A stretch of 63,135 bases of DNA, filler included, from Basidioascus undulatus (GCA_000826855.1; 4 parts of 4 records of this genome joined end to end with filler, not necessarily neighbours in it), one strand, 5' to 3'; shown: positions 6,242 through 57,203, counted from the first letter of the whole stretch. The notes: generated from the sequence alone by a model not told the origin. Numbers and translations are program-made.

Positions 6242-8093
6242 ATGCTCCGCACCATGCTCCCGCACCTACTTATCCCCCTAGCAGCTGCGCTCCTTCCCAG
6301 CAGCGCGCTCGCGCAGTTCCAAAATACTGCGCTGACGCGGACGGTCGAGCTCGGGAGCGCGACCGTGCATGCTACGACGGCGTACCAGTTCACGGCTACC
6401 GAGGACGGCGTGCGGGAGTATGTGGTGGACTTCACGCCGGAGGAGCGCAGGGCGCTGAGCTGGTTTGAGGTCCGCGAGAAGGGCGCGAAGGAGGAGCTTG
6501 GGTGGAGATGGCTTGAGAAGGGCAGCGAGAGGTGAGTCTGCTTCCAGGAGGGACCATATTGTGCGCCATGCTCCAGAAGAGGAGAGGATCTGGCAAGTTC
6601 TGGTAGGACAACTTGGGGATTCCCCGTGGGAGGGCCTCCGAGCTGTTGCTGTTAGGAGCGGAGCAGGTCGAGCCCGAGCTACGCAGCCTCGATTGCTGAC
6701 CTCCTTCCCCCCTCCATTCCCAGCGAACCCCTCTCCCTATCAGTCCAACTCCCCTCCGCACTGTCCCCCTCCTCCCCTCTCACCACCCTCATCTTCACCG
6801 CCCTCCAAACCAACACAACCACCCCCCTCCCCTCGCACGCCGCGCAAGACGACCCGCTCCACCTCCTCTACACCACCTCCTCACACATCCCCTCGCGCTA
6901 CCCAACCGCCGCGCAGCGCACCAAGATCCGCGCGCCGACGCCCAAGCTCCTCAGCTTTTCGACCACCGCCGACGCGGAGAAGACGACCAAGTCGGGCGCC
7001 GTCGTCACGTACGGCCCGTGGAAGGACGTGCCTGCGGGCTTTGGGAGCGGCGAGGAAGTGCGGGTGCACTTTGAGGGTGACCGCGCAGTCGCAGTTGTCA
7101 AGAAGGCGGAGCGCCTCGCGGAGGTCAGCCATTGGGGCGCGGCGCTGAGTGTTGAGGACTGGATCGCGCTGCACAATGAAGGGCCTGCGTGCGTCTTCTT
7201 CATCCTCAACTTCCCTCATCGCCTTCCTCCTGATCCTTCCCGATCCCACCACAGTCTCAAGGGCCACTTCAACCGCCTCCAGCACCAGCAGTCGTCCTTC
7301 TTGCGCAAGACCTCCGCGTCGATCCTCTCGGGCCTCACGCTCCGCCTGCCCGGGACAGTCCGCAATCCGTACTACGCTGACGCGATCGGGAATGTTTCGA
7401 CGTCGCACTTCCGCCCCGAGGGCGTTCTCGAGCTTAAGCCGCGCTTCCCCATCCTCGGCGGGTGGAAGTACGAGTTCGTCGTCGGCTGGGACGCGGACCT
7501 CGGCCGGTTCGGGAGCGATCTGGGCAACGGCGAGTTTGTCGTCGGCGTACCGTTCTTAAACCCCCTTCCCGACGTCGCGGTGGATGAGGCGGTTCTGAAG
7601 GTCGTGCTGCCCGAGGGAGCGCAGTGCGTGCTTTTATCCTTTCCCTCTCTTCCGTTGTGAAAGGCAGACGCGCTTACCTTACGCTGGGTGCGCTACTCGG
7701 ACACACAGCAACATCGAGGTCCACCCGCCCTTCCCCGTCGACTCCATCACGCACGAAACAACCTACACCTTCCTCGACACGACCGGCCGTCCGACCGTAG
7801 TCCTGACCAAGCGGCGCGCATCCGAGAAGCACGGCGGGACCGTTTACGTGCGTCTTCTTCCCTTTTCCCCGCACTTTCGCCCCATCACCCCCGACTTCTT
7901 CCTTTTCTGACTCATTGCTTACCCCTGGCAACAACCACAGATCAAGTATGCCCTCCCCTGGTACCACCTCCTCCAGAAGCCGGCGGCTGTCGCGGGCGCG
8001 GCCCTCGCGTTCCTACTGCTCGCTGCGGCGCTAAAGCGCGTGCGGTGGACGACCGAGGGTGAGAGTGGGGTTGGGAAAAAGAAGGCGGAGTGA
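6242..8093 (+). CDS. OST1: Oligosaccharyltransferase subunit ribophorin I, multi-exon
   Basis: Signal peptide followed by FQNTALTRTVELG, VTYGPW, ERLAEVSHWG, LKGHFNRLQHQ, PYYADAIGNVSTSHFR, LELKPRFPILGGWKYEFVVGW, KVVLPEGA and TYTFLDTTGRP. It ends in a TM segment and a KKxx-type tail GKKKAE*. Confidence 0.95.
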
Positions 8094-13887: not shown

Positions 13888-13965
13888 GCTTGGCTGGGGT
13901 AGTGGTAACCTGGGTCGTTGCCATTGGAACTCGACCCGCCCCGCGTTCGATTCGCGGGTCAAGCA
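13888..13965 (+). tRNA. tRNA-Gly(GCC) with a 7-nt intron at 37/38 (13924-13930)
   Basis: Acceptor stem GCTTGGC/GTCAAGC plus A, D-loop AGTGGTA, anticodon stem GGTCG/CGACC with loop TT-GCC-A[TTGGAAC]T, T-arm CCGCG-TTCGATT-CGCGG. A TTTT run follows at 13967-13970. Mature length is 71 nt. Confidence 0.93.
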
Positions 13966-37090: not shown

Positions 37091-39733
37091 GAACCCCTGG
37101 GTACAATGACATGCTTGATACGTGATACATAGAGGAAGCGCCCTCGGAGAGAGGGTGGATGGTTGTCGTGGGAGGTCAAGCCGAGGTTGGTGGGCGTAAC
37201 TAAAGGTTTGACGATGCGGGATAGGCGAGGCTTAGTAAGGCTTTGGAGTTTCCGCTGGAGCAACTTACTGACGCGAACCTGAATCGCTGGTATGCATTGT
37301 TGTCAACCAGGTGGGATCAGATGCGGATGTGATGTATGTTGCGTATCGAGGACTGCGCTTTGGGCGGTTCGAGCTGAGGTCTCTCTGGTGAAACGGGTTG
37401 ACCTCGCCGTGGCGTGAAAGCAGCGGTTTACGGATAACATGGTGCCTAAGAAAGCATAGAGATGGGTTTTTGCTGCCGTTCCGGTTACGGGAGATATATA
37501 AAAGTACCTAGCAAGCATGCGTCCATTTCCACTTAGAGCGACCGTTTCAATGCGCCTCGTGCCTCCGAGTACGGCAACCCACCTGTCCCAACTGTTACCA
37601 TGCCGCACCAACTATATGCAGTAGATCGGCTAAACAGCAGTACTCGAGCCGTTCATATGAGGTATAACAGGTGCTGGCGATCAATGAGCTAGAGGGTTTC
37701 TAACAATTTACATAGAACTTCGCTTCGCAACTTCCGGATGTTGAAGCCCAACAGCTCTGGCTCTACGGGCTTCGACATCAATATCAGGGGGCGACTCCGA
37801 TCTCACGGCCTTCACTGTCATTCTCACAGCCTCCGAACCACGAGAGCACCCCACCCGCGATACCTGAAACGTACCCAGTCTTCTACGCACCCAAAGGCCG
37901 GCACTTCCTATATTCTGGTAAGCTGCTGAACACGTCGTGCATCCCGACCCGCCCGAGCGCCCCGTCCCACCACCGCCGACGCAGTGTAGTCGAGCGGTCA
38001 AGCCCTCGCTCCACTTCGGTCCGTCAGTCTCTTGCCCCGTCCGGGAGTAGATAGGAAGGCAACAGAGGATAGTGAAGAGAGAGAAGGAATAATTAGGCTT
38101 GCCAGGCCGAGCGCACGCTCCTGGCTCGCAGTGCTCATCTGGCACGGGATGTAGCCTCGCTCGGGGGTGGGCGTAGCAAAGCTCTGTTGGACCCTTCAAG
38201 GACAACATCTTTTGTTTTCACTGCCGGATGTGGTGTTTTACGCCCACTGTTCGTTAAATAATGGAAGCAGTGAGGGAGCCGTTGTACGCGACCTCAGAGC
38301 AGGCATCGAGGTGCTGCGTGCGAGCGGAAGGCGCTTGCTCAAGTCCGACTGAGGGCGCTCGCTACTGTCCGCGAGTTGGAGTTTCAGAAAACCATACTTC
38401 TTCAAGTTTCTTCTGGCTAGCTCACACCTCTATGATAATCCCCCAAACGATTGCATCGCCTCGACATCTCCTTCCTATTTTCCCCCTTTTCCTTTTCCAC
38501 CGTCTCCTCACCACCCTCAAACAAAAGCCATCTCCATCCCCGCCCCCACGCCTATCCCCTTCCCGGGACCAGAGTACCTCCTCTTCCTTTTCCTTCCATC
38601 CCACGGGCTGCGCGCGTCCATCCGTCTGCGGCGCTGGTGGAGGTGGAGGAGAACTGCGAGCGTAACCGTGATAGCGCCTGCGGAATTTCCATATTCCCCA
38701 AATCAGTCCGTGTAAGAAATCCGGAGGGCGGAAGACGGGCGAAGTACCCAGGAATATCAGAGCTGTCTGGAACGGGTTCCCCAGCGTCGCGCACAGCTGC
38801 ACAGGGAGCGAGCGGTCCGCCCCGCCGGCGGAGGGGGAGGTGAGGGAGGCGATCCTGCGTGGGTTTGAGGGGTTCAGCGGGGGTTCGGAGGGGAGGAGGA
38901 GGTGGTGGGAAGGAGGTACAAGGGTATGCGGGAGCTGAATGGGAGGAGGGAGGGGAGGGAGGGGAGGTTGTAGGTGAAGAACTTGAAGTTGGGGAGGGGG
39001 AACATGGTCCTTTCTCTTCGTGGGAGACGCGTTTGACCGGAGCGAGTAGGTGAGAAAGGCAAGCGATGAGAAGGGAACATTTATGGCAGGGAGGAGAGGG
39101 AGGATGTTTTGCGAGGGAAAAGCAAACAACGCTGCGCTGCTGGGTTGAAGGGGACGGGGACGGAAGGGTGCAAGCTGCGAGGCTGCCGAGGCACGGAGCG
39201 TGTTCCGCTTACCCCGTTCAGTTTGTTCAAGGAGGGTAAATAGGTTTCACAGCGGAATCTTTTGATATCTTTTCTGTTGCGTGTCGCAGGCGAGCTGTTG
39301 AAGATCGAAGGCGGATGAGGATGCGCTGCAAGACAGTAGGGGACCACCTCTGACATTTCAAGGCAGTTATACCGGGATCAGGGCGTCCTTAAACAAGTAT
39401 TCTGTATCATGTAACATTGAGAATGCAGGAACAACGGCCTGCATAGGCGGACGACAATTACTTGCACCTGCGAACGGACTGCACTCCGCGACCGACTCGG
39501 AGATGCCAACGGGATGCAAAACCACTCGTGGAAAGTCGTTTCCTTTTAATAATTTATTCACAATTTTTCAATGCAGGAGCATCGACCTGCATCGAAATGG
39601 TTACTTGACGCTCGCCAGGCATGGACTGCAATCGCCGACAATGCTCCCTGTAGCGAACCCAAGGTTTGCCGAAAGCCCAAAAGTCGCCCTGGCTTCCCAC
39701 CTTCCTCCCACTTCCTTGGCTTGCACACGCACC

Positions 39734-40820
39734 ATGTCCGAGCCAGCGCACGCTTCTCCCCCTCCCCCCGCTACCGCCCAGAAGCGGCCGATGTCCCTCG
39801 CCCCCTCCCTCGCCGCCGACGCCGACGCACCCTCCAAGCGCGCGCGCGCCGACGCGGACGAGCAGCCGACACAGGCGTCCGCGTTCGAGCTCGACGACTC
39901 GCTGCTGCCCGAGGCCGAGATGGCTGAGGCCCCCGCTAAGGTCGAAGCCGACAAGCCAAAGTACGAGGTCGAGAACGTCCTCCCGCCGAGCACGAAGCTC
40001 CTGCTTAGGGAGCGGGAGGCGCAGCCGGACGACGGCTGGGACGGCGTGCATGCGCGGGAGATTGATGTGGGGATTATGCAGTATGTTGATAGGAGCGTGG
40101 GGAAGGTCCATGGCGTTATCAAGCAACGGTGAGTGGTGCTTCCGGTGTACTAGCCGAGGGGCTCGAAGGGTCCTGGATGGGTTGGCTGCGAAGGGCGCAG
40201 AGGGCACGGCTGGGCCTGAAATCTACGCTGCACTCGCCATCCTACTGGCTGCAGCCATCTCAGTCTGGTCGCTTCCAAACACTTACACCTTGTGATATAT
40301 CCCCTCCAGCTTCACCGACTTCCTCGTCTACGAAGTCGAACCATCCGGTGAGGTTGTGCGCCTGAGAGACATCCGCCGCCCGAACATCATCAACCCTCCG
40401 CCGCCGAAAGAGGAGCCGAGTCTGTCTGGCTCTTCTTTCCGTTCCCCTCAGCGTCAAACTGATCGAGAGCGGTCGCCCAGCAGAGAAGGCGGAGCCCGCG
40501 ACCGAGGGCATTGCTGCACCTTCTGCCGAGTCCAGTGCGTCTTTGCGTGCTTTCTCGCTGTCGCAGCTGTGCCCTTCCCGCTGACTTTTGCCTTGAATCC
40601 CCAGGCGACGCACCCACCCCTGCTGCAGATGCAGAAGCTTCCAACGACTCCACCCCTGCCCCCGCCCCCGCCGAAGCTCCCGCGGAGACTGTCGCCGCCG
40701 GGCCTGCGCCGGCGTCTGCTCCGGAGGCGTCCGAGGAGCCTGCAGGCGAGAAGGATTCCACTCCAAACCAGGACAAGGGCAAGAGCCCAGCGTCCAAGCC
40801 TTCCGATGTGCGCCAGAAGT
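39734..40820 (+). CDS. PUS7: tRNA/U2 pseudouridine synthase Pus7 (TruD family), 5' part only
   Basis: EIDVGIMQYVDRSVGKVHGVIKQR|FTDFLVYEVEPSGEVVRLRDI. It is cut off at ~40810 by integrase sequence. Confidence 0.85.
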
Positions 40821-41445
40821 GACCAGTGAAACGTGGGTCACGGTCCGAGATGATGATCTTCAGTTGGCCATGGTGCTTGAAGATGTGGTCAACATAGAGC
40901 TTGGCAATCCCTTGTCCAGTGACTCAGGTGGTTGTTGGGATGAAGTGTGCACGCTTGCTGAGGCGATCGACAATGACGAGGATGGCATCATGGTGCTTGT
41001 GTGTCTTGGTAGTCCAGTGACGAGGTCGAGTGACACCTGCTCCCACTTGCGTCGTGGTGTCGGCAAGGGCTGGAGGGCACCTTGAGGCTGTTGAGTCGAT
41101 GCCTTGTTGCACTGGCAGGTGTCACAGGTGGCGACATAGTCCTTGATGTGTTTGTGCATGTTGGGCCAGTAGTAGAGGCGGTGGATTCGTTCATATGTCT
41201 TGTCATATCCTGGGTGTCCAGCAGCCGGGGTGTCATGGTGATCATGGAGGACATTGTTGTGGATGGGGCCTTGAGGAACACAGAGACGTTCTCCTTCTGC
41301 AACGCCTGGGATGGCAGCATAGAGGAGGAATCTGTCACGCAATGTAAAGTGCTTGAGACGCTGTTGGAGCTCGAGGGGTGGTGGTGTGTTTTGGTCAGCT
41401 TCTTGTTGCTGGAGTGCATCCAGGATGGCCTGGAAATCTTTGTCA
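40806..41445 (-). mobile_element. Ty3/Gypsy LTR retrotransposon integrase relic
   Basis: HHCC zinc finger HDTPAAGHPGYDKT..YYWPNM..CDTCQ, then WEQVSLDLVTGLP, DAILVIVDRLSKRAHFIP and IISDRDPRFTGHFW. It has one frameshift and one internal TGA, and runs into the gap. Confidence 0.93.
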
Positions 41446-41545
41446 NNNNNNNNNNNNNNNNNNNNNNNNNNNNNNNNNNNNNNNNNNNNTTAATTAATTA
41501 ANNNNNNNNNNNNNNNNNNNNNNNNNNNNNNNNNNNNNNNNNNNN
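41446..41545. other. Assembly gap linker (N44-TTAATTAATTAA-N44)
   Basis: Same 100-nt construct as 30577-30676. Confidence 0.97.
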
Positions 41546-42006
41546 TCCGGAGAGCAGGGAAGAGAGCAGCGCATCAAAATGCAAAGATGCAGAGAAAGCA
41601 AAGGGATGAGGACGATTGTGTGGTGGAGGTGGAGGTGGTTGGGGATGGGGCGCGCGCAGGCGGGGAGGCTGTGGTCGGTGGACGGGAGGGCGGGGTGGCG
41701 CGCAAGGAGGGGGAGGCAAAGGGAGGGGACGATAGTGATGTGGAGATTATTGGGTGAGGGTGGAAACGCAGGGAGAATCAATAGATACGAAAGCTTGAGA
41801 ATGCCATCTGGCTGTTTTTGCTTGCCTGACCGTGCACACGGATAGCTAAACCCGAGAACGTCAACTACATGGGTATCGCTCCAGTGCTTGTGGGCATACA
41901 ACAAAACACATTCCCATCAAGCCTGCTCCACATCCGCCTTTTCCACTCGATGTCCCACTCAGGCGTGAGGTTTGCGCATCAAAAAGGTAGATCTGCTGGT
42001 CGCAGG

Positions 42007-44638
42007 TCAAGCCGTCAATGGTCTAGTGGTCATGCAGGGAGGCGGTGTTTCGAAGGGACGCGAAGGGACGCACGCTTGTACTCTGTCAGGTCCGTACACG
42101 CGCAATCCCTTAAATCAGTAGGGCTCGACACGGGGAAAACTAGAGGACACACGTTGCAAGCACGTCGTCCTCCGCTTGCGACTCGCGCTCACGCTCCAGC
42201 GCCCAGGTGTTGCTCCTCTGCCGACGCGGGCCCTCCAGGATGCTCTGGTCGATGTCTCGCCAGCCGAACTCCTCTTCGACCAGGACGTCGAAGCCGATCC
42301 GCCGGCCCTGCGCAAGAATAAAAGGAAAGACACAGTGAGTGGCCGATGCGGGCGACGACCTCGTGCGTCGAGTGAAGTCAGTGGGCTCACCATGTCGCTG
42401 ACCCATTCGTCTAGCTCCCTCTCGAACTCCTCCTCGTTCCGCCACCACTCAGCGTTCACGTACCTGGAAATAGGAGAAGTCAGTAAACTTGTAAAAGGCA
42501 CAGCCGCAGAGCGGACACTCACACGTCCTCCCCTTTCCCGGTGCGTCCGATGTGCACCTGCGGGGGCCTGGGTGCGCCCCCAGGCCTGTCGCACAGCGTC
42601 CGCCACGCCGTCCACATGCCCTCGCGCGAGTTATCGAGCCTCGTGACCACCGCTTCGCCGCAGCCCGACCGCAATTATCAGCATCGACAAGACTGGGAGG
42701 GAGGGCAACTGCAGGCGCACTAGCCATGAACGCTCTCGATATCAGGTCGAGGTTGTGTACTGTTTGCGCCAACTGCTCTGCATTAGGCTCGTACGAATCG
42801 CCGAAGAGACCCTTGAGCATCTCAAGCATAGACAGTTCTCTGCCGTCGCGCGAGTGAACCATGGGCGGCAGCCTCACTTCGGATAGACGGGCACGGGCTT
42901 TTGACGGGAGCATGACGGTCACATCTGAGCTGCGGGTAATGCCAGTGAAGCCTGCGCACGGGCATAAGAGCAGCTCAACATCCACCCGCGACCCAGAGTA
43001 TCCGCACAGCAGATGCGGAACGTGAAAAAAGACGCACCGTTTTGAGCTGCAGTCGCGTGGATCGTCCGCAGGGGGTCGAGATTGACCATGTGGCCCTCGA
43101 AGATGTGGTGCCACGCCAGTCGGATGCGGGTAAAGTCGGACTGAATGGGGATATCATACGAGTGATCCTCCGGGGAAGACAGCGGCGGACGAGGTCGCAC
43201 GCCCGTAAGCATCCTGTGTTGCGCGGTCAGTCAGGCGTGCAGCTCGGGCTTTGAAGAAATTACACTTGCCCATAAGTCATTTCGGTTATCTAAGACCCTG
43301 GTCAGCTACCCTGCTCGCCGATTAATCCCCGGAGAAAGCGTACCTCGACTGCGCCTCCAGGTGCCAGTATGCGCATGATCTCCTGTATGGAACGGGCAAA
43401 CGTCACCCAGGAGACTCCATCGGCTGGTTTGCACTCTCACCTCGAGTAAACTGTCCCACTTCTGCTCGGGAACCCTATAGCAGCGCTGTTAGTCGCTGGT
43501 AAAGGCTAAAGGAGGAAGGGTCCCCGCACCCAAGTCCAGCCTGGCGCGTCAGTGGTCACACGAACGACAATCAGTTCAATGCTCGTGATACAAAGTCGGC
43601 GGTATTTGCAGAAAAATAACGCACATAACGCATGTGCACGAAGTCGAAGCTTGCATCCAGGTATGGCAGACGTTGCAGACTGCAAAGCGCGGCCTCGTCA
43701 GACCGCACGTAACCAGCATCAGCTGAGAAACACGCACAAGTTGCCGACATGCCATTCCACGCGTCCCAGGAGGTCATCTGGCACCGAAACTTGGCACGGC
43801 GCGAGGTCGAAGCCGATGATGTGTGCGTTTGGCCAGAGGGATCTCGCAACGTCAATGCACCAGACGCCGGAACTGTCGGCCGCTAGATCAGCGAAGCTCT
43901 AAGGGGAAAACTAAGAGTGACTTACCCGCAGCCAAGATCAAGGACAAGTCGCGGAGCGGGAAGAGCGCGCGATTCGGCAGAAATGTGTCCTCCGAGAAAG
44001 ATCCCCCAAAGAGTGTGCAGCAAGTTGTCCCTGGGGCGAAGGGTGGTTCAGTCAGGCCGCTATGGCATGCAATGAGACAAGGTGTACGTAGACAGCACAG
44101 CAGAGCTGTAGCTGAAGAACCATGGCGCCTCTGCGTGCGTCCAAGCGTGGTACGGCACATCATCTTGAAGATATCGGAGCTCGCGACTGGGCGCGTCCCT
44201 GCACTCGCTCGCTGAAGCGGCCTGCTCATCCGTCGGATCCTCGCCAAGAAGCTCGAGCGCATCGGCCGGGTCGTACCCAAGGTCGAACGCGCTTGTCCAG
44301 CCCGGCGTGCGCTGTCCGAAGTCGGTACTGCGTCTCTGCGCGTTGACCGAGGGGCTTGCAGGCGAAGGGGCCGAAGCGAACGTGTTGATCGTAGAGCTCG
44401 ACCATCCGCCTGCCTCACTGCGGTCCGGCAAAGACAGAGACACAGACGCGTTCTCTGAGAGCGAGCGCCCTATGCGGCGCGGCCAGCCTGGGCCGACGTC
44501 GCCCCCTTTGGGCGAGGCCGTTGGCTCGACAGGGTGATAGGAAGACGACGTGTTCAGCTTCGAGAAGAGAGGCGAAATCAGCCCGCTCTTTGGGCGGAGC
44601 ATGTCGCGGCGTTTGCCCTGCTTCGATGGTGGAGCCAT
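42007..44638 (-). CDS. Class I SAM-dependent methyltransferase (fungal type with disordered N-terminus), multi-exon
   Basis: APWFFSYSSAVLS|TDNLLH, motif I PRLVLDLGCG, GVWCIDVA..WPNAHIIGFDL, RLPYLDASFDFVHMR, VPEQKWDSLLE|EIMRILAPGG. Both ends are approximate. Confidence 0.8.
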
Positions 44639-45952
44639 AAACGAGATCGACTTGAGGCGAGAACGCCGAAGAGTGAGAGGCGAAGGAGACGAATGCCAAG
44701 ACTTGTGCGACAAGGCACTTCGAGGATGAACGGCTCGACGAAGATCACGGACCGTCTCCTTGTTATGGGAAGGTGGGATTGGAAAAGGCGCGCTCTGACA
44801 TGAGCATCGTGCGCGAGCTTTCGAAGAGGAGCGCGGATGTCCCGCTGCGGTCCGCTGCCCTTCAGGAACGCTGCGCCGGCCGGCCCCACGCGGCCCTCGA
44901 AGCTCCGCTTGATAGCGGCGGATTCAGCAGTGAGTTTGAGTGAGTTGGTGATACCCCTCGAGCACAAGCAGAACCCGACCCAGAGAATCACTGTGCATGT
45001 GAGGAGAAGTAGGCAATAACTGGAGGAGGTCAAGGAAGTCTGTGAAGTCGAGAAGAGGTTGTCCTCGGCGGTGGAAGTTGGGTGGAGGAGAGTGAGTGAC
45101 CCGCCTGGCTCCTGTTTGGCCTTTTTATCCTGCTGTCCAACGCATGAAAATACACAAATCACTCCCACCATAATCATAGACGTGGACTTTCGTTCAAGTT
45201 CATTCTGCTGATCGTCTTCTAATACCCCGTCGGCCTCGACATATCATTCCTGCGAAGTCGATCACGGAAACCCCACTTGTCAGTCAAAGCAGTCGACAGA
45301 GTGCACTTTGCCAGACTTCCGTTTTTATGTACCAGTGGTATTCCCAGGGTTGAAACCCAATGGGATCCCCAGGTGCGTTTCGCCTGTAAGCCGTGCAAGA
45401 ACGGAACGCAGTGCGCACAGGAAAGCTGAAAGCGTAGCACGATCTTCACAAGTTCCCAATATTTAAAGACCTACTTCAGTCTCGATCTGTCTGGACTACC
45501 TGAAGCTGAAGAGCAGACAGTGGCTCACATGCGAAATTTCACGTTGGGTTTTCAACAGGCTGCGATCCATGCCTGTGTGCTAGAGAGATAAGATGTTCGG
45601 CTTGTTCGGGCATATTACTACGTCTGACCCCTGAAAAGGTAAGAATAATCCGCCTTCTTCCACGTGGGCAAGCCCCCGCATTATGGGCCATACGAAACGC
45701 GTTTGCATCGCAATCATACATCGCCATGGCGTGCTTAGACCGGCCGCTGTCTTTTCATACAGGGGGCTTGTTATGCAGGAGTATTCAAGAAAACTGTGAA
45801 GCCCACCATTTAAAAGGTCGCACCAGGAACTATCCCTTTCCGTGCCCTCCAGCGCCAGCGTTCAACGCTCGACCTATGACCGATAACTCTCTTCCGAGCC
45901 AGCCTCAAGACGCTTTGCGAATTGCGTACGTCTTGCGGTAAAAAACCCTCCA

Positions 45953-52532: not shown

Positions 52533-53039
52533 CGGCCCACCGTCCTTTCTCCTTTCTGGCTTTCACGCCTACTTCACATTAGCTACACTACACACCTACC
52601 ATTGCGCCCGCCATCGCTACCTGTATTTGGCCCACGGCTATGCGCATTATTAGTACGCTTGCATTGCACTACATTTACACGCCTGGTCCTGTTCCGGGGT
52701 GCATGCTCGTTCGCGTCTGCCCGGAGTGAAATCCGAAGAAGTATTCTGTTGGCAAGTAAAGCGGGGGAACATCGACGGATGAATCCGTCGGGCTACTGGC
52801 CATCATGATGGACCTGCAGCGGGCGGGCTGGTTCAAAATATCCCCAGAAGTGGGGAGCAACAGAGTATTGAACCCGCTCATCTTTCTGCTGTTGGCAGGC
52901 TCGTGAGTCAGCATATATACCGCAATGTCATTCAGGATGCACTGTCATCCAGGATCTTCGCTGGGCTGTCATCATGAAATTATTATGGATTCACTTTCAG
53001 TAAAAGAGCAGCCACTTGTTAAATAAGTGGTCAGTCGAG

Positions 53040-53112
53040 ATCAGGGGGTTGCAGGTTCGATCCCTGCGTCGGTCACGGCCGGCTGGCTCAATGGTAGAAT
53101 ATCTGACTACGA
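53040..53112 (+). tRNA. Circularly permuted tRNA-Arg(ACG): 3' half 53040-53075, 1-nt spacer, 5' half 53077-53112
   Basis: 3' half is A-TCAGG-GGGTT-GCAGG-TTCGATC-CCTGC-GTCGGTC-A. 5' half is GGCCGGC-TG-GCTC-AATGGTA-GAAT-A-TCTGA-CT-ACG-A. Reassembled they give a 72-nt cloverleaf with full acceptor, anticodon and T stems and one D-stem mismatch. Function is untested. Confidence 0.8.
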
Positions 53113-53672
53113 TTCTTTTGCACCTCGAGATCTTAAGGCTACAAGTTTTGCTACCCGTCCTTTACTCAATCAGAAGGGGTTGGACCGTCGTCATCTTGTT
53201 AAGAAAATTCAACCACCGGTTCATATCGGCGGGTGCACCGTGTACGATCTCGTCGCACAGGCAGAAAGCTGCAATATCGGTTTTCTGTCAGAGAACGATG
53301 CTCGACATGTTGTTGATGATGAGTAGGCCCATTTGGAGGTCAGCCGATATTGAGGGAGCATACAAAGTCGAATGCTACTGTGACACAGCACGATGCGGCG
53401 TAGCCTCAGGAGCTGCTGGCGACCGGATGACGGTCTCTTTTGTTGTCGGCGTGTTATCGAATGTGTGGAGAATAGTAATGTCCTATCCTCCCATTTGGTT
53501 GGACGGCAGCATTTCTTATGTTGAACCCGCGGACGGAAGTTCCTACGCGACTGAATCCGCTTTCGCTCCCTGCCCTCCTCCTATCATCAACCACCCGCTG
53601 GACCTCAATATTGTGTGGGTCCCTCTGAGGCTTTATTCATTGAAAAGCTTCCTCCACGTCCTCCCAGTCCAC

Positions 53673-54069
53673 ATGCAGCTGTCCACCAGCTCGCCCACCG
53701 ACCCCTTCTCCTGCATCCCTTACGATTGTCTGCGCCTCGTCTTTAGCCACCTTTCCGCTCGTGATTTCGCCCTGCTTGCAGCCTGTCCCCACTCCACCCG
53801 CCTTCTTATCGCTCAACTCGCGATGCACCCGGCGCTCTTCTTCAGACGGGGTTTCGCCGCCGAGATTACAAAAACAAAGGGCTGTTTTGCGAAATAATAT
53901 GTGGAAAACAGCAGCTCGGGTCGACTTGTCGACGTTGCATAGTGCGAGAACCGTTCACGGGTTCGAAAATTCGGCGATGGACCGCAGAATCTTGGGCGGC
54001 AGCTTTGGAGATCGATCGATGGAAGTAGAGGAGGAACGATTAATTAGGAGAGACGAGGAGATTCCGTGA
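53673..54069 (+). pseudogene. F-box-like protein remnant
   Basis: PFSCIPYDCLRLVFSHLSARDFALL followed by an early stop or frameshift. Confidence 0.45.
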
Positions 54070-56018: not shown

Positions 56019-57203
56019 GATGGTGGGGTGGAAGCAGAGGGTGCAGAGGGATTAGACTGCTTTATCAGACCCCTCGCCGCTCGGGACAGGACACCGCATT
56101 ATATGGCAACACAGCGAGGGTCACAACTTTTGACAGCTATCTCTGAGGTCCCGAGCTTGCGAGGGGTCTGATCGATTAGGCCGCTTTCTCGCAGGGATTT
56201 CTGGCCCTTTGAAGGTGACTTCGTTGTCTTCAATGTAAAGAAGGCTCTTTCTTGGGTTTCATTCCACTTGAATATATCTCAATAGTACACTTGCAAAAGC
56301 AGGGCCTCTCAAGTTGTCTGCAGCTCTCTCCAGAGCGGGTCAAAGTTAGGCAAAGTGGGCCTGGTGCAGCGAAAGGCAAGCGCGCGCCAGCCGCCCACTG
56401 CGAAGTGCCTGCCTGACCCCTCACCTTTGCTGCTGAAATGAAGACTTCCGCTCTGTTTGATAGAAGAGCGCCTTGCAGAGTGGCAGTTTATGGGCATATG
56501 TTGATGATGCAGGCCTCCGATGCCGTGAGGAGTGGAGAAAAAAGAGGCAGAAGGAGAAGGCTTGACAAAAGCCAGAATATCTGCGAGAAGGCCGCCCTTC
56601 CGATCAGACCCCTCGCAAGCTCGGGACCCGAAGATAGCTGTCAAACTCCTTGTCCTTCGCTGTGTCGCCAAATATGGCTCGCCTGCGGTCCTGGCCCGAG
56701 CTTGCATGGGGTCTGATGAAGCAGTCAATCAACAGAGCGATCCTCGAGCAGCAGAACGGGGTCTGTCTTGAACATCGTGCTAAACAATAATTCTGTAGCC
56801 TGAGGCCACCAGCTATAATCTTTTGCTCTGGCGTTCACTCCACGATCCTGCATAAGAACTGTGTATATCAAGGCTGTAGCTGTTGTTATTCGGCGAGGAC
56901 GATTGGAAGAAAGGAGACGGCAGCAGTTTAGGCAGCGATCGGCGCCGCATCCCGGGCCGAAGTCGCGGTGGCCGTCCAGCCCGGCGTCCGCTTGGCGGCT
57001 GGTGCTCTGGGCAGGGACAGCGGTGGCCTCGTGAGCTGCAACGGCGTCGTTCAGTCGGTCAGGCGTTCGGTTCGCCATTGACCACGACGAGCGCGCTGCA
57101 CCCCACGACGACGCCTGACAGCAGGCGCACCCGCCCATACCGGGATTCGTGTACTTTTTCTCGGCTGCGCGCAGCTCCAGCGGCCCGATATTCCCTGGCA
57201 GCG

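Follow-up and report, generated by a model that had tools for sequence, protein, structure and literature searches.

The locus described here raises the question of whether a fungus can carry, and use, a tRNA gene whose two halves stand in the reverse order. The first-pass annotation had assigned it to a circularly permuted tRNA-Arg(ACG), with the halves split by one C, and had read it as either a functional gene or a preserved intermediate. We examined its structure, its copies in sequencing runs and its likeness to known systems. Coordinates refer to the window, the whole stretch of DNA that was analysed (63,135 nucleotides).

A tRNA-Arg(ACG) in permuted order

By direct reading and with a script, we located the tRNA's 3′ half (positions 38-73, 36 nt) at 53040-53075 (+) and the 5′ half (positions 1-37, 36 nt) downstream of it at 53077-53112 (+), which bears out both the permutation and the break at 37/38 proposed at first. 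Between position 73 and position 1 lies a single C (53076, +). The 3′ half contains the 3′ strand of the anticodon stem (53041-53045, +; from sequence reading and the fold), the T arm (53051-53067, +) with its B box at about 53054-53063, the 3′ strand of the acceptor stem (53068-53074, +) and the discriminator A (53075). The 5′ half opens with the 5′ strand of the acceptor stem (53077-53083, +), continues through the tRNA's own A box (53084-53094, +; 10/11 consensus matches) and the D arm (53086-53100, +), and ends with the anticodon ACG (53109-53111, +) and A37 (53112). The A box thus lies downstream of the B box, the reversed order about which the first-pass annotation had cautioned. A trailer, TTCTTTT (53113-53119, +), follows the 5′ half; its run of four T's (53116-53119), noted earlier and seen again on reading the sequence, is the proposed Pol III terminator.

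The script's pair list for the re-ordered halves agreed with the stems as first described: the acceptor stem is fully paired (7/7, two G-U), as are the anticodon stem (5/5, one G-U) and the T stem (5/5). Three of the four D-stem pairs are formed, with C11 (53087) facing A24 (53099). ARAGORN called the re-ordered halves, which the first-pass annotation had suggested passing through a tRNA finder, as a tRNA-Arg(acg) of 72 nt, a cloverleaf with a 7-nt anticodon loop; the native order of 53040-53112 gave no ARAGORN call. Each half occurs once in the 63-kb window at up to three mismatches, and 100 shuffles gave no match. When doubled 100-nt windows from all 63 kb were passed to ARAGORN, the permuted Arg locus was the only convincing junction-spanning tRNA, and three shuffled windows gave no calls in the same scan. 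A second junction-spanning call, at 56971, was discarded as a false positive, its acceptor stem being mismatched and its T loop absent. With a 3′ half upstream of a 5′ half on one strand and a short linker between them, 53040-53112 is permuted in the sense of Soma 2007.

An Rfam scan at E<=10 returned no tRNA match at the permuted locus. The sole match there was to YrlA (53043-53107, 24.2 bits, E 0.03), and membership of this family (RF02553) was ruled out, the score standing well below the gathering score of 69. The match arises because the tRNA-like module of YrlA has its parts in the same order (T arm, acceptor-like stem, D arm); members of YrlA come from bacteria and phages, and the fungal locus has a complete anticodon arm.

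Agreement with a model of marine permuted genes

We searched metagenome contigs with a general pattern (T loop, 18-30 nt, Arg-type D loop, CTACG), which occurred at 88 loci. Fourteen matches, in 13 of these loci, were permuted tRNA-Arg(ACG) genes, all from marine samples, which we assume to be of the Mamiellophyceae or green-picoalga kind. The remaining loci were tandem tRNA pairs and were rejected as permuted genes. In the marine permuted genes, the halves are 36 + 36 nt with a 37/38 break, the acceptor stem pairs 7/7 (6/7 in one) and the anticodon stem 5/5, the linker is 4-10 nt long, and a T run usually follows within about 20 nt downstream. After re-ordering, every one of these sequences was called tRNA-Arg(acg) by ARAGORN. 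One contig, L034 (Ga0115005_10370643), carries two permuted tRNA-Arg(ACG) units in tandem, about 98 nt apart, with linkers of 7 and 5 nt.

A covariance model trained only on 11 distinct sequences of these marine genes gave a single match in the 63-kb window, at 53040-53112 (+), over its full length (52.9 bits, E 3e-13), indicating that the fungal locus fits the known type II architecture in both sequence and structure. The fungal acceptor stem was found in none of the marine permuted genes, and a pattern specific to the fungal junction had no matches in the metagenome contigs. Among the marine copies, the stem nearest to the fungal one is that of L049:387-468 (+), with acceptor strands GACCGGC and GTCGGTT, discriminator A and a 10-nt linker.

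The fungal host and its conventional tRNA gene

The window encodes Ribophorin I, UBA/TPR, F-box and TIM21 proteins and a retroelement integrase. For the Ribophorin I exon ORF (6656-7657), the named proteins among the best 120 matches were all from Basidiomycota (35-42% identity), confirming the fungal host given in the first-pass annotation; the protein collection searched with this ORF held no closely related annotated genome. The integrase zinc-binding domain (PF17921, E 2e-22) lies at 40863-41489 (-) with long unannotated ORFs around it, and the region of about 38400-45300 is probably a Ty3/gypsy-type retrotransposon.

The sole conventional tRNA in the window is tRNA-Gly(GCC) (13888-13965, +; 78 nt, ARAGORN). 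A hand fold places in it, at 37/38, an intron of 7 nt (TTGGAAC), with U32 paired to A(-3); G and then TTTT follow the gene. This gene indicates that the host splices tRNAs at the canonical site and that a tRNA gene is closed there by four T's. A scan of the whole window at the Rfam gathering thresholds returned nothing, and so missed this tRNA-Gly(GCC) too.

An open frame of 297 codons (53004-53897, +) runs through the permuted unit and has a weak F-box match at its end (residues 235-269, E 7e-4). The real start of the F-box gene is probably well downstream of the permuted unit, which would then lie in the upstream region of that gene. We also compared the translation of the unit (53027-53146, frame +0) with the protein library for spurious ORFs over its copies; the two matches were both to unrelated long repetitive proteins.

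The locus is one copy of a dispersed family

The region was covered by three public sequencing runs: X1 and X2, which come from two studies and amount to about 35 Mb of contigs apiece, and X3, which shares its sample with X1. Their contigs, which we take to be assemblies from 31-letter words (Logan data), were aligned to 52700-53500 at >=80% likeness; 20 of the 76 aligned pieces were listed. The contigs of X3 cover the repeat only.

In X1, single-copy contigs cover 52700-53048 (depth 38.8) and 53069-53500 (depth 48.2), and in X2, a contig of 3014 nt spans 53069-53500 with zero differences (depth 18.1). The junction at 53075-53077, where the first-pass annotation had seen a risk of misassembly, is thus spanned by contigs from two studies, and its presence on one contig with unique downstream DNA in both argues that the locus is not an assembly artefact. 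In X1, a single-copy contig of 10 kb carries the joint between the leader and the 3′ half.

The stretch of about 53025-53121 is covered by 36 contigs in X1 and 36 in X2. A junction contig over 53046-53098 has a depth of 472.7 in X1, as against 38.8-48.2 for the flank contigs; in X2, two junction contigs cover the same interval, one at depth 175.4 with a single difference and the other at 298.3 with exactly the sequence of the window, as against 15.5-18.7 for the flanks. The ratio of junction to flank depth is therefore ~11 for the single X1 variant listed, and ~10 and ~17 for the two in X2; these are single-contig ratios, as summed contig depths are not copy numbers, and "tens of copies" is a rough estimate. 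The linker C is present in the deep junction contigs of the family.

Nine contigs in X1 and nine in X2 run on into flanks unlike those of the window. On the left, the listed loose ends precede 53025, 53026, 53033 and 53045; on the right, they follow 53114, 53121 and, in three contigs, 53119. The unit common to the copies thus reaches from a leader to a little beyond the T run. Further T's open several of the right flanks that are unlike the window, with T runs after position 37 behind 53114, 53119 and 53121, and the trailers of other copies diverge 2-9 nt past position 37. At the left edge, the match of other copies to the window starts at 53025 or 53033, and a further ~17 nt of leader upstream are related but not identical. 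The window locus is one copy of a multi-copy dispersed repeat of about 53025-53121. Of the two readings offered at first, a functional gene or a preserved intermediate, the permuted structure stands, but the lone gene or lone intermediate gives way to a multi-copy family in both X1 and X2. Such a family adds weight to a functional reading and to a SINE-like reading alike.

The variation among the copies is unevenly placed. The 53-nt core (53046-53098) is identical to the window in the deepest contig, and across the deep contigs the 73-nt tRNA part shows few differences or none, whereas the leader, which differs between copies at several positions, and the trailer vary. Copies have 1-7 differences overall, and some have 5-7 differences in 54-83 nt (6-9% diverged). 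The left-hand contig of the window locus ends at 53048, which implies that at least one other copy shares 53019-53048 and that the leader variant of the window is present more than once. As its right-hand contig begins at 53069, and the shared junction contig extends to 53098, the branch falls at 53099; the A at this position is found only on the single-copy contig, so other copies that share the core have another base there. From these contig breaks we infer that A24 (53099), the source of the D-stem mismatch, is probably a mutation private to the window copy; a G at 53099 in other copies would restore the C11-G24 pair. The C11-A24 mismatch, which the first-pass annotation had raised as a caveat, is thus present in the window but does not appear to be a caveat for the whole family.

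One 93-nt contig of X3 aligns on both 53033-53097 and 53068-53095, part of the unit being repeated with a period of about 63 nt. Its order is tRNA positions 1-19, directly followed by AGTCGAG and then by another 3′ half. Judging from this contig, the family's leader might be what is left of a decayed tRNA 5′ portion; alternatively, the genome might contain tandem arrays at other places.

Every fungus needs a tRNA-Arg(ACG). Among the pieces listed at >=80% likeness, no joint or loose end in X1, X2 or X3 showed the conventional order, with the 5′ half running into the 3′ half; a conventional tRNA-Arg(ACG) less than 80% alike, or one on filtered-out contigs, would escape this comparison. We regard this as moderate evidence, at the level of contig sequence, for the absence of a conventional tRNA-Arg(ACG) gene from the contigs, and the cell may draw this tRNA solely from the permuted copies.

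Leader, candidate promoter and terminator

The leader (53009-53039, +) folds into a hairpin (53011-53019 with 53023-53031). An A-box-like motif at 53020-53030 matches TRGCNNAGTGG at 9/11 positions and lies 34 nt upstream of the B box. Matches of this quality have a background of 0.0024 per nt in the window, so that ~7% of 31-nt stretches hold one by chance; the AGTGG core of the motif is among the letters common to other copies. The last seven nucleotides of the leader, AGTCGAG (53033-53039), pair with the anticodon loop and the trailer in a cloverleaf-constrained fold. The X3 contig, in which intact tRNA positions 1-19 stand at the place of the leader before AGTCGAG, suggests that the leader is a remnant of an upstream 5′ half.

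Fungi depend on TFIIIC. A working family with reversed boxes would therefore need another solution, for which we propose the A-box-like remnant in the leader; the arrangement with the B box upstream of the A box is described as unsuitable for TFIIIC (PMC3978253). Further upstream, 23-32 nt before the proposed transcript start, sequence reading revealed an AT-rich, TATA-like patch, AAATTATTAT (52977-52986, +), a possible TFIIIB site; the patch is specific to the window locus. At the other end, 53116-53119 is the only run of four or more T's within 53009-53125, and none occurs earlier in the unit.

An 8-nt direct repeat, TCGAGATC, occurs at 53035-53042 and 53125-53132 (+). Its first copy straddles the boundary between leader and 3′ half, and its second copy lies 13 nt past the 5′ half, where 53113-53129 resembles a 17-nt intron with the initial 3 nt of another 3′ half after it. 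We considered a rolling-circle or greater-than-unit-length copy as the source of this repeat and rejected it, since the sequence upstream of the first TCGAGATC copy mismatches the end of the supposed 90-nt period, the second copy is not shared by other copies of the family, and repeats of this type occur at 3.8% of random places in the window.

A putative working gene family

Judging from the sequence, we consider it an evenly balanced proposition that 53009-53119 is one copy of a working permuted tRNA-Arg(ACG) gene family in a basidiomycete-like fungus. Pol III would then start near 53009, from a promoter formed by the B box in the 3′ half and the A-box-like leader remnant bound by TFIIIC, possibly helped by the AT-rich upstream patch. 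Termination at the T run 53116-53119 would give a transcript of roughly 111 nt, whose two halves would fold into a cloverleaf, with the end of the leader pairing with the anticodon loop in the manner of an intron. The tRNA-splicing endonuclease would cut after A37 and before A38, and the tRNA ligase would join A37 to A38, creating a 73-nt circle. This circle would be opened by RNase P between the linker C and G1, and the linker C would become C74. As the product would end in A73-C, the CCA-adding enzyme would have to add CA only, and RNase Z would be dispensable. Were RNase P to act before splicing, a base-paired two-piece RNA would result and could be joined by the same enzymes. A34 would be deaminated to inosine, as in other eukaryotes. 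The window copy, with its private D-stem mismatch, would perhaps be a family member that is weaker or in decay.

The eukaryotic tRNA-splicing endonuclease requires an anticodon-intron pair. In the register of the splice sites, C32 can pair with G(-3), A34 with U(-5) and C35 with G(-6), and U33 meets C; three of the four pairs of the central helix of the BHB are possible, and hardly any of its outer helix can form. With a linker of 1 nt, the loop is only 2 nt long, so that G1-C72 would be unable to pair before cleavage.

Several features could be counted in favor of a working family: the core is conserved with the variation outside the tRNA, and the transcribed parts (leader and T runs) appear to be kept in other copies. 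The C32:G(-3) pair, the splicing of tRNA-Gly in the same host and the lack of T4 inside the unit would be compatible with transcription and processing, and the tRNA call on the re-ordered halves, the match to the marine model, the lack of a conventional order among the pieces seen and the host's need for the tRNA would point the same way. The reversed A and B boxes, the 9/11 quality of the leader motif, the imperfect BHB and the 2-nt pre-cleavage loop would count against it, as would the copies that are 5-7 letters off in 54-83 nt, which is what would be expected of decaying repeats. The metagenome contigs yielded no relative with the fungal junction, which would weigh on the same side.

Alternative explanations

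A unit that runs from start to terminator between unlike flanks is also a signature of retroposed Pol III transcripts. The family might therefore be a dead SINE-like repeat, in which a permuted tRNA-Arg-derived RNA became a Pol III master copy and its transcripts were retroposed; the halves would be intact only because the burst is young, and the real tRNA-Arg(ACG) would come from unseen conventional genes. We hold this to be a serious possibility, if one that we would not favor. The master could have arisen, for example, from a reverse-transcribed circularised pre-tRNA with the first C of CCA, or from a collapsed tandem dimer. The dispersal of many near-identical copies together with some diverged ones (1-7 differences), unit edges that fall at a plausible transcript start and at the T run, and the stem-breaking private change of the window copy are all consistent with this explanation. 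An A-box-like motif ahead of the B box would be an internal promoter travelling with each copy, and the ~63-nt period of the 93-nt X3 contig suggests unstable, rearranging repeats. On the other hand, the unit has no A-rich or LINE-like tail, and by eye no target-site duplication of at least 5 nt surrounds the window copy, TCGAGATC lying partly inside the unit. A pure SINE needs only the 11-nt B box of the tRNA part, yet the whole 73-nt tRNA part is still a near-perfect cloverleaf while the leader has diverged between subfamilies. Moreover, the tRNA is essential, and the pieces listed for X1 and X2 at >=80% likeness include no contig in the conventional order. The functional and the SINE-like readings are also compatible with each other, as a working gene with an internal promoter could retropose. 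More tentatively, and with some doubt, we envisage a joint reading from the sequence, in which the fungus, basidiomycete-like and deep-branching, would make all its tRNA-Arg(ICG) from permuted genes, the linker would serve as C74, the leader would be a promoter remnant, and the gene would have multiplied in a SINE-like manner from a reverse-transcribed founder. A promoter inside the transcript would permit such multiplication, and the lone linker C suggests that the founder was a reverse-transcribed circularised, end-matured, intron-containing pre-tRNA.

Two further explanations are much less probable. The minus strand of the unit could be a relic of retrotransposon priming, either a primer-binding site or what a reverse transcriptase leaves on reading through a primer made of a tRNA or half of one. 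Fragments from the 5′ side of a tRNA, cut in its anticodon loop, serve as primers for some fungal copia-like elements, and the window has a Ty3/gypsy-type integrase ORF at 40863-41489. Yet the copies share no LTR, their sequences parting 2-9 nt past position 37 and, on the other side, upstream of the short leader; no TGG, the complement of CCA, adjoins the acceptor strand; both halves are complete and mutually complementary; and a BLAST comparison of the unit with the window found no related primer-binding site elsewhere in it. We thus consider a priming relic very improbable. Slightly less credible still is the idea that the window locus alone was rearranged once or misassembled. It is true that 53049-53068 is covered by repeat contigs only, so that the path through it is not unique, and that X2 has no listed contig over 52916-53023. 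However, the junction lies with 400 nt of unique downstream DNA on one single-copy contig in two runs from two studies, the joint between the leader and the 3′ half lies on the 10-kb single-copy contig of X1, and the junction recurs in many contigs.

Implications of a fungal permuted family

The first-pass annotation knew of no fungal example of a permuted tRNA gene, and we found none in print either, in a search of the full-text literature with subscription journals outside its coverage. In the accounts of PMC13578239 and PMC3978253, permuted tRNA genes of eukaryotes are confined to certain unicellular algae. From its sequence, the fungal family would belong to a known kind, the type II permuted tRNA gene, with the 1-nt linker, the leader promoter remnant and the amplification as candidate variant features.

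If the family works, the permuted layout is compatible with a yeast-type splicing endonuclease, a Trl1-type ligase and a Pol III system that depends on TFIIIC, and permuted genes would be placed in a group of organisms with easy genetics and tRNA sequencing. A working family would also explain an apparently missing essential tRNA in annotation, as ARAGORN and Rfam miss the native order. If the joint reading is true, permuted genes would be known for the first time from beyond algae and archaea, and for the first time from an organism that depends on TFIIIC; a working tRNA gene would be a retroposon too, and one RNase P cut would open the circle. The repetition of a transcript-length unit bears on the origin and spread of permuted genes. 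Should the copies prove dead, they would still make up an undescribed kind of short repeat in fungi, a permuted family derived from a tRNA.

Comparison with known systems

The unit resembles fungal tRNA-derived SINEs, such as AfuSINE2 of Aspergillus fumigatus (PMC5063351), and other tRNA-derived repeats (PMC8450103) in being a short, dispersed, multi-copy, tRNA-derived unit, and the contigs of X1 and X2 show it between unlike flanks. Like them, it has Pol III boxes, ends in a T run, and escapes tRNA finders or is scored wrongly by them. Described SINEs have a normal-order tRNA head, a tRNA-unrelated body, a tail and target-site duplications, whereas the fungal unit is permuted and about 111 nt long, ends in TTCTTTT, and has halves that make a full cloverleaf. 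No normal-order head with a body and an A-rich, simple-repeat or LINE-derived tail was found in it.

In the description given by PMC3978253, the permuted genes of C. merolae likewise have the 3′ half upstream of the 5′ half, a TATA-like element upstream and a T stretch downstream; TATA-like elements are reported upstream of algal permuted genes. The C. merolae genes break at several positions, whereas the fungal family breaks at 37/38. The same source describes C. merolae as lacking recognisable TFIIIC box-binding subunits, so that reversed A and B boxes would be harmless there.

The closest parallel to the linker is the tRNA-Tyr(GTA) of Thermofilum pendens, which also has a 1-nt intervening sequence and is the only permuted tRNA described with one (Chan, Cozen and Lowe 2011, in PMC3978253). 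That gene is archaeal, breaks at 59/60 and encodes CCA before its 1-nt linker; the fungal unit has no encoded CCA, and its single C could itself be C74. How the 1-nt linker of T. pendens is removed was raised as a question in the 2014 review (PMC3978253), and the fungal linker bears on this processing of very short linkers.

The nearest relatives in architecture are the type II (37/38) permuted nuclear tRNA genes of green picoalgae, described for the Ostreococcus/Micromonas group (Maruyama et al. 2010, via PMC3978253 and PMC13578239). The fungal locus has in common with the marine, picoalgal type the tRNA-Arg(ACG) identity, the 37/38 break, the 36 + 36 nt halves and the T run after the 5′ half. 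The marine linkers are 4-10 nt long as compared with 1 nt in the fungus, and the marine leaders place GTAG opposite the anticodon loop, whereas the fungal leader ends in AGTCGAG. The acceptor stem and the host also differ, and the fungal unit is highly repeated.
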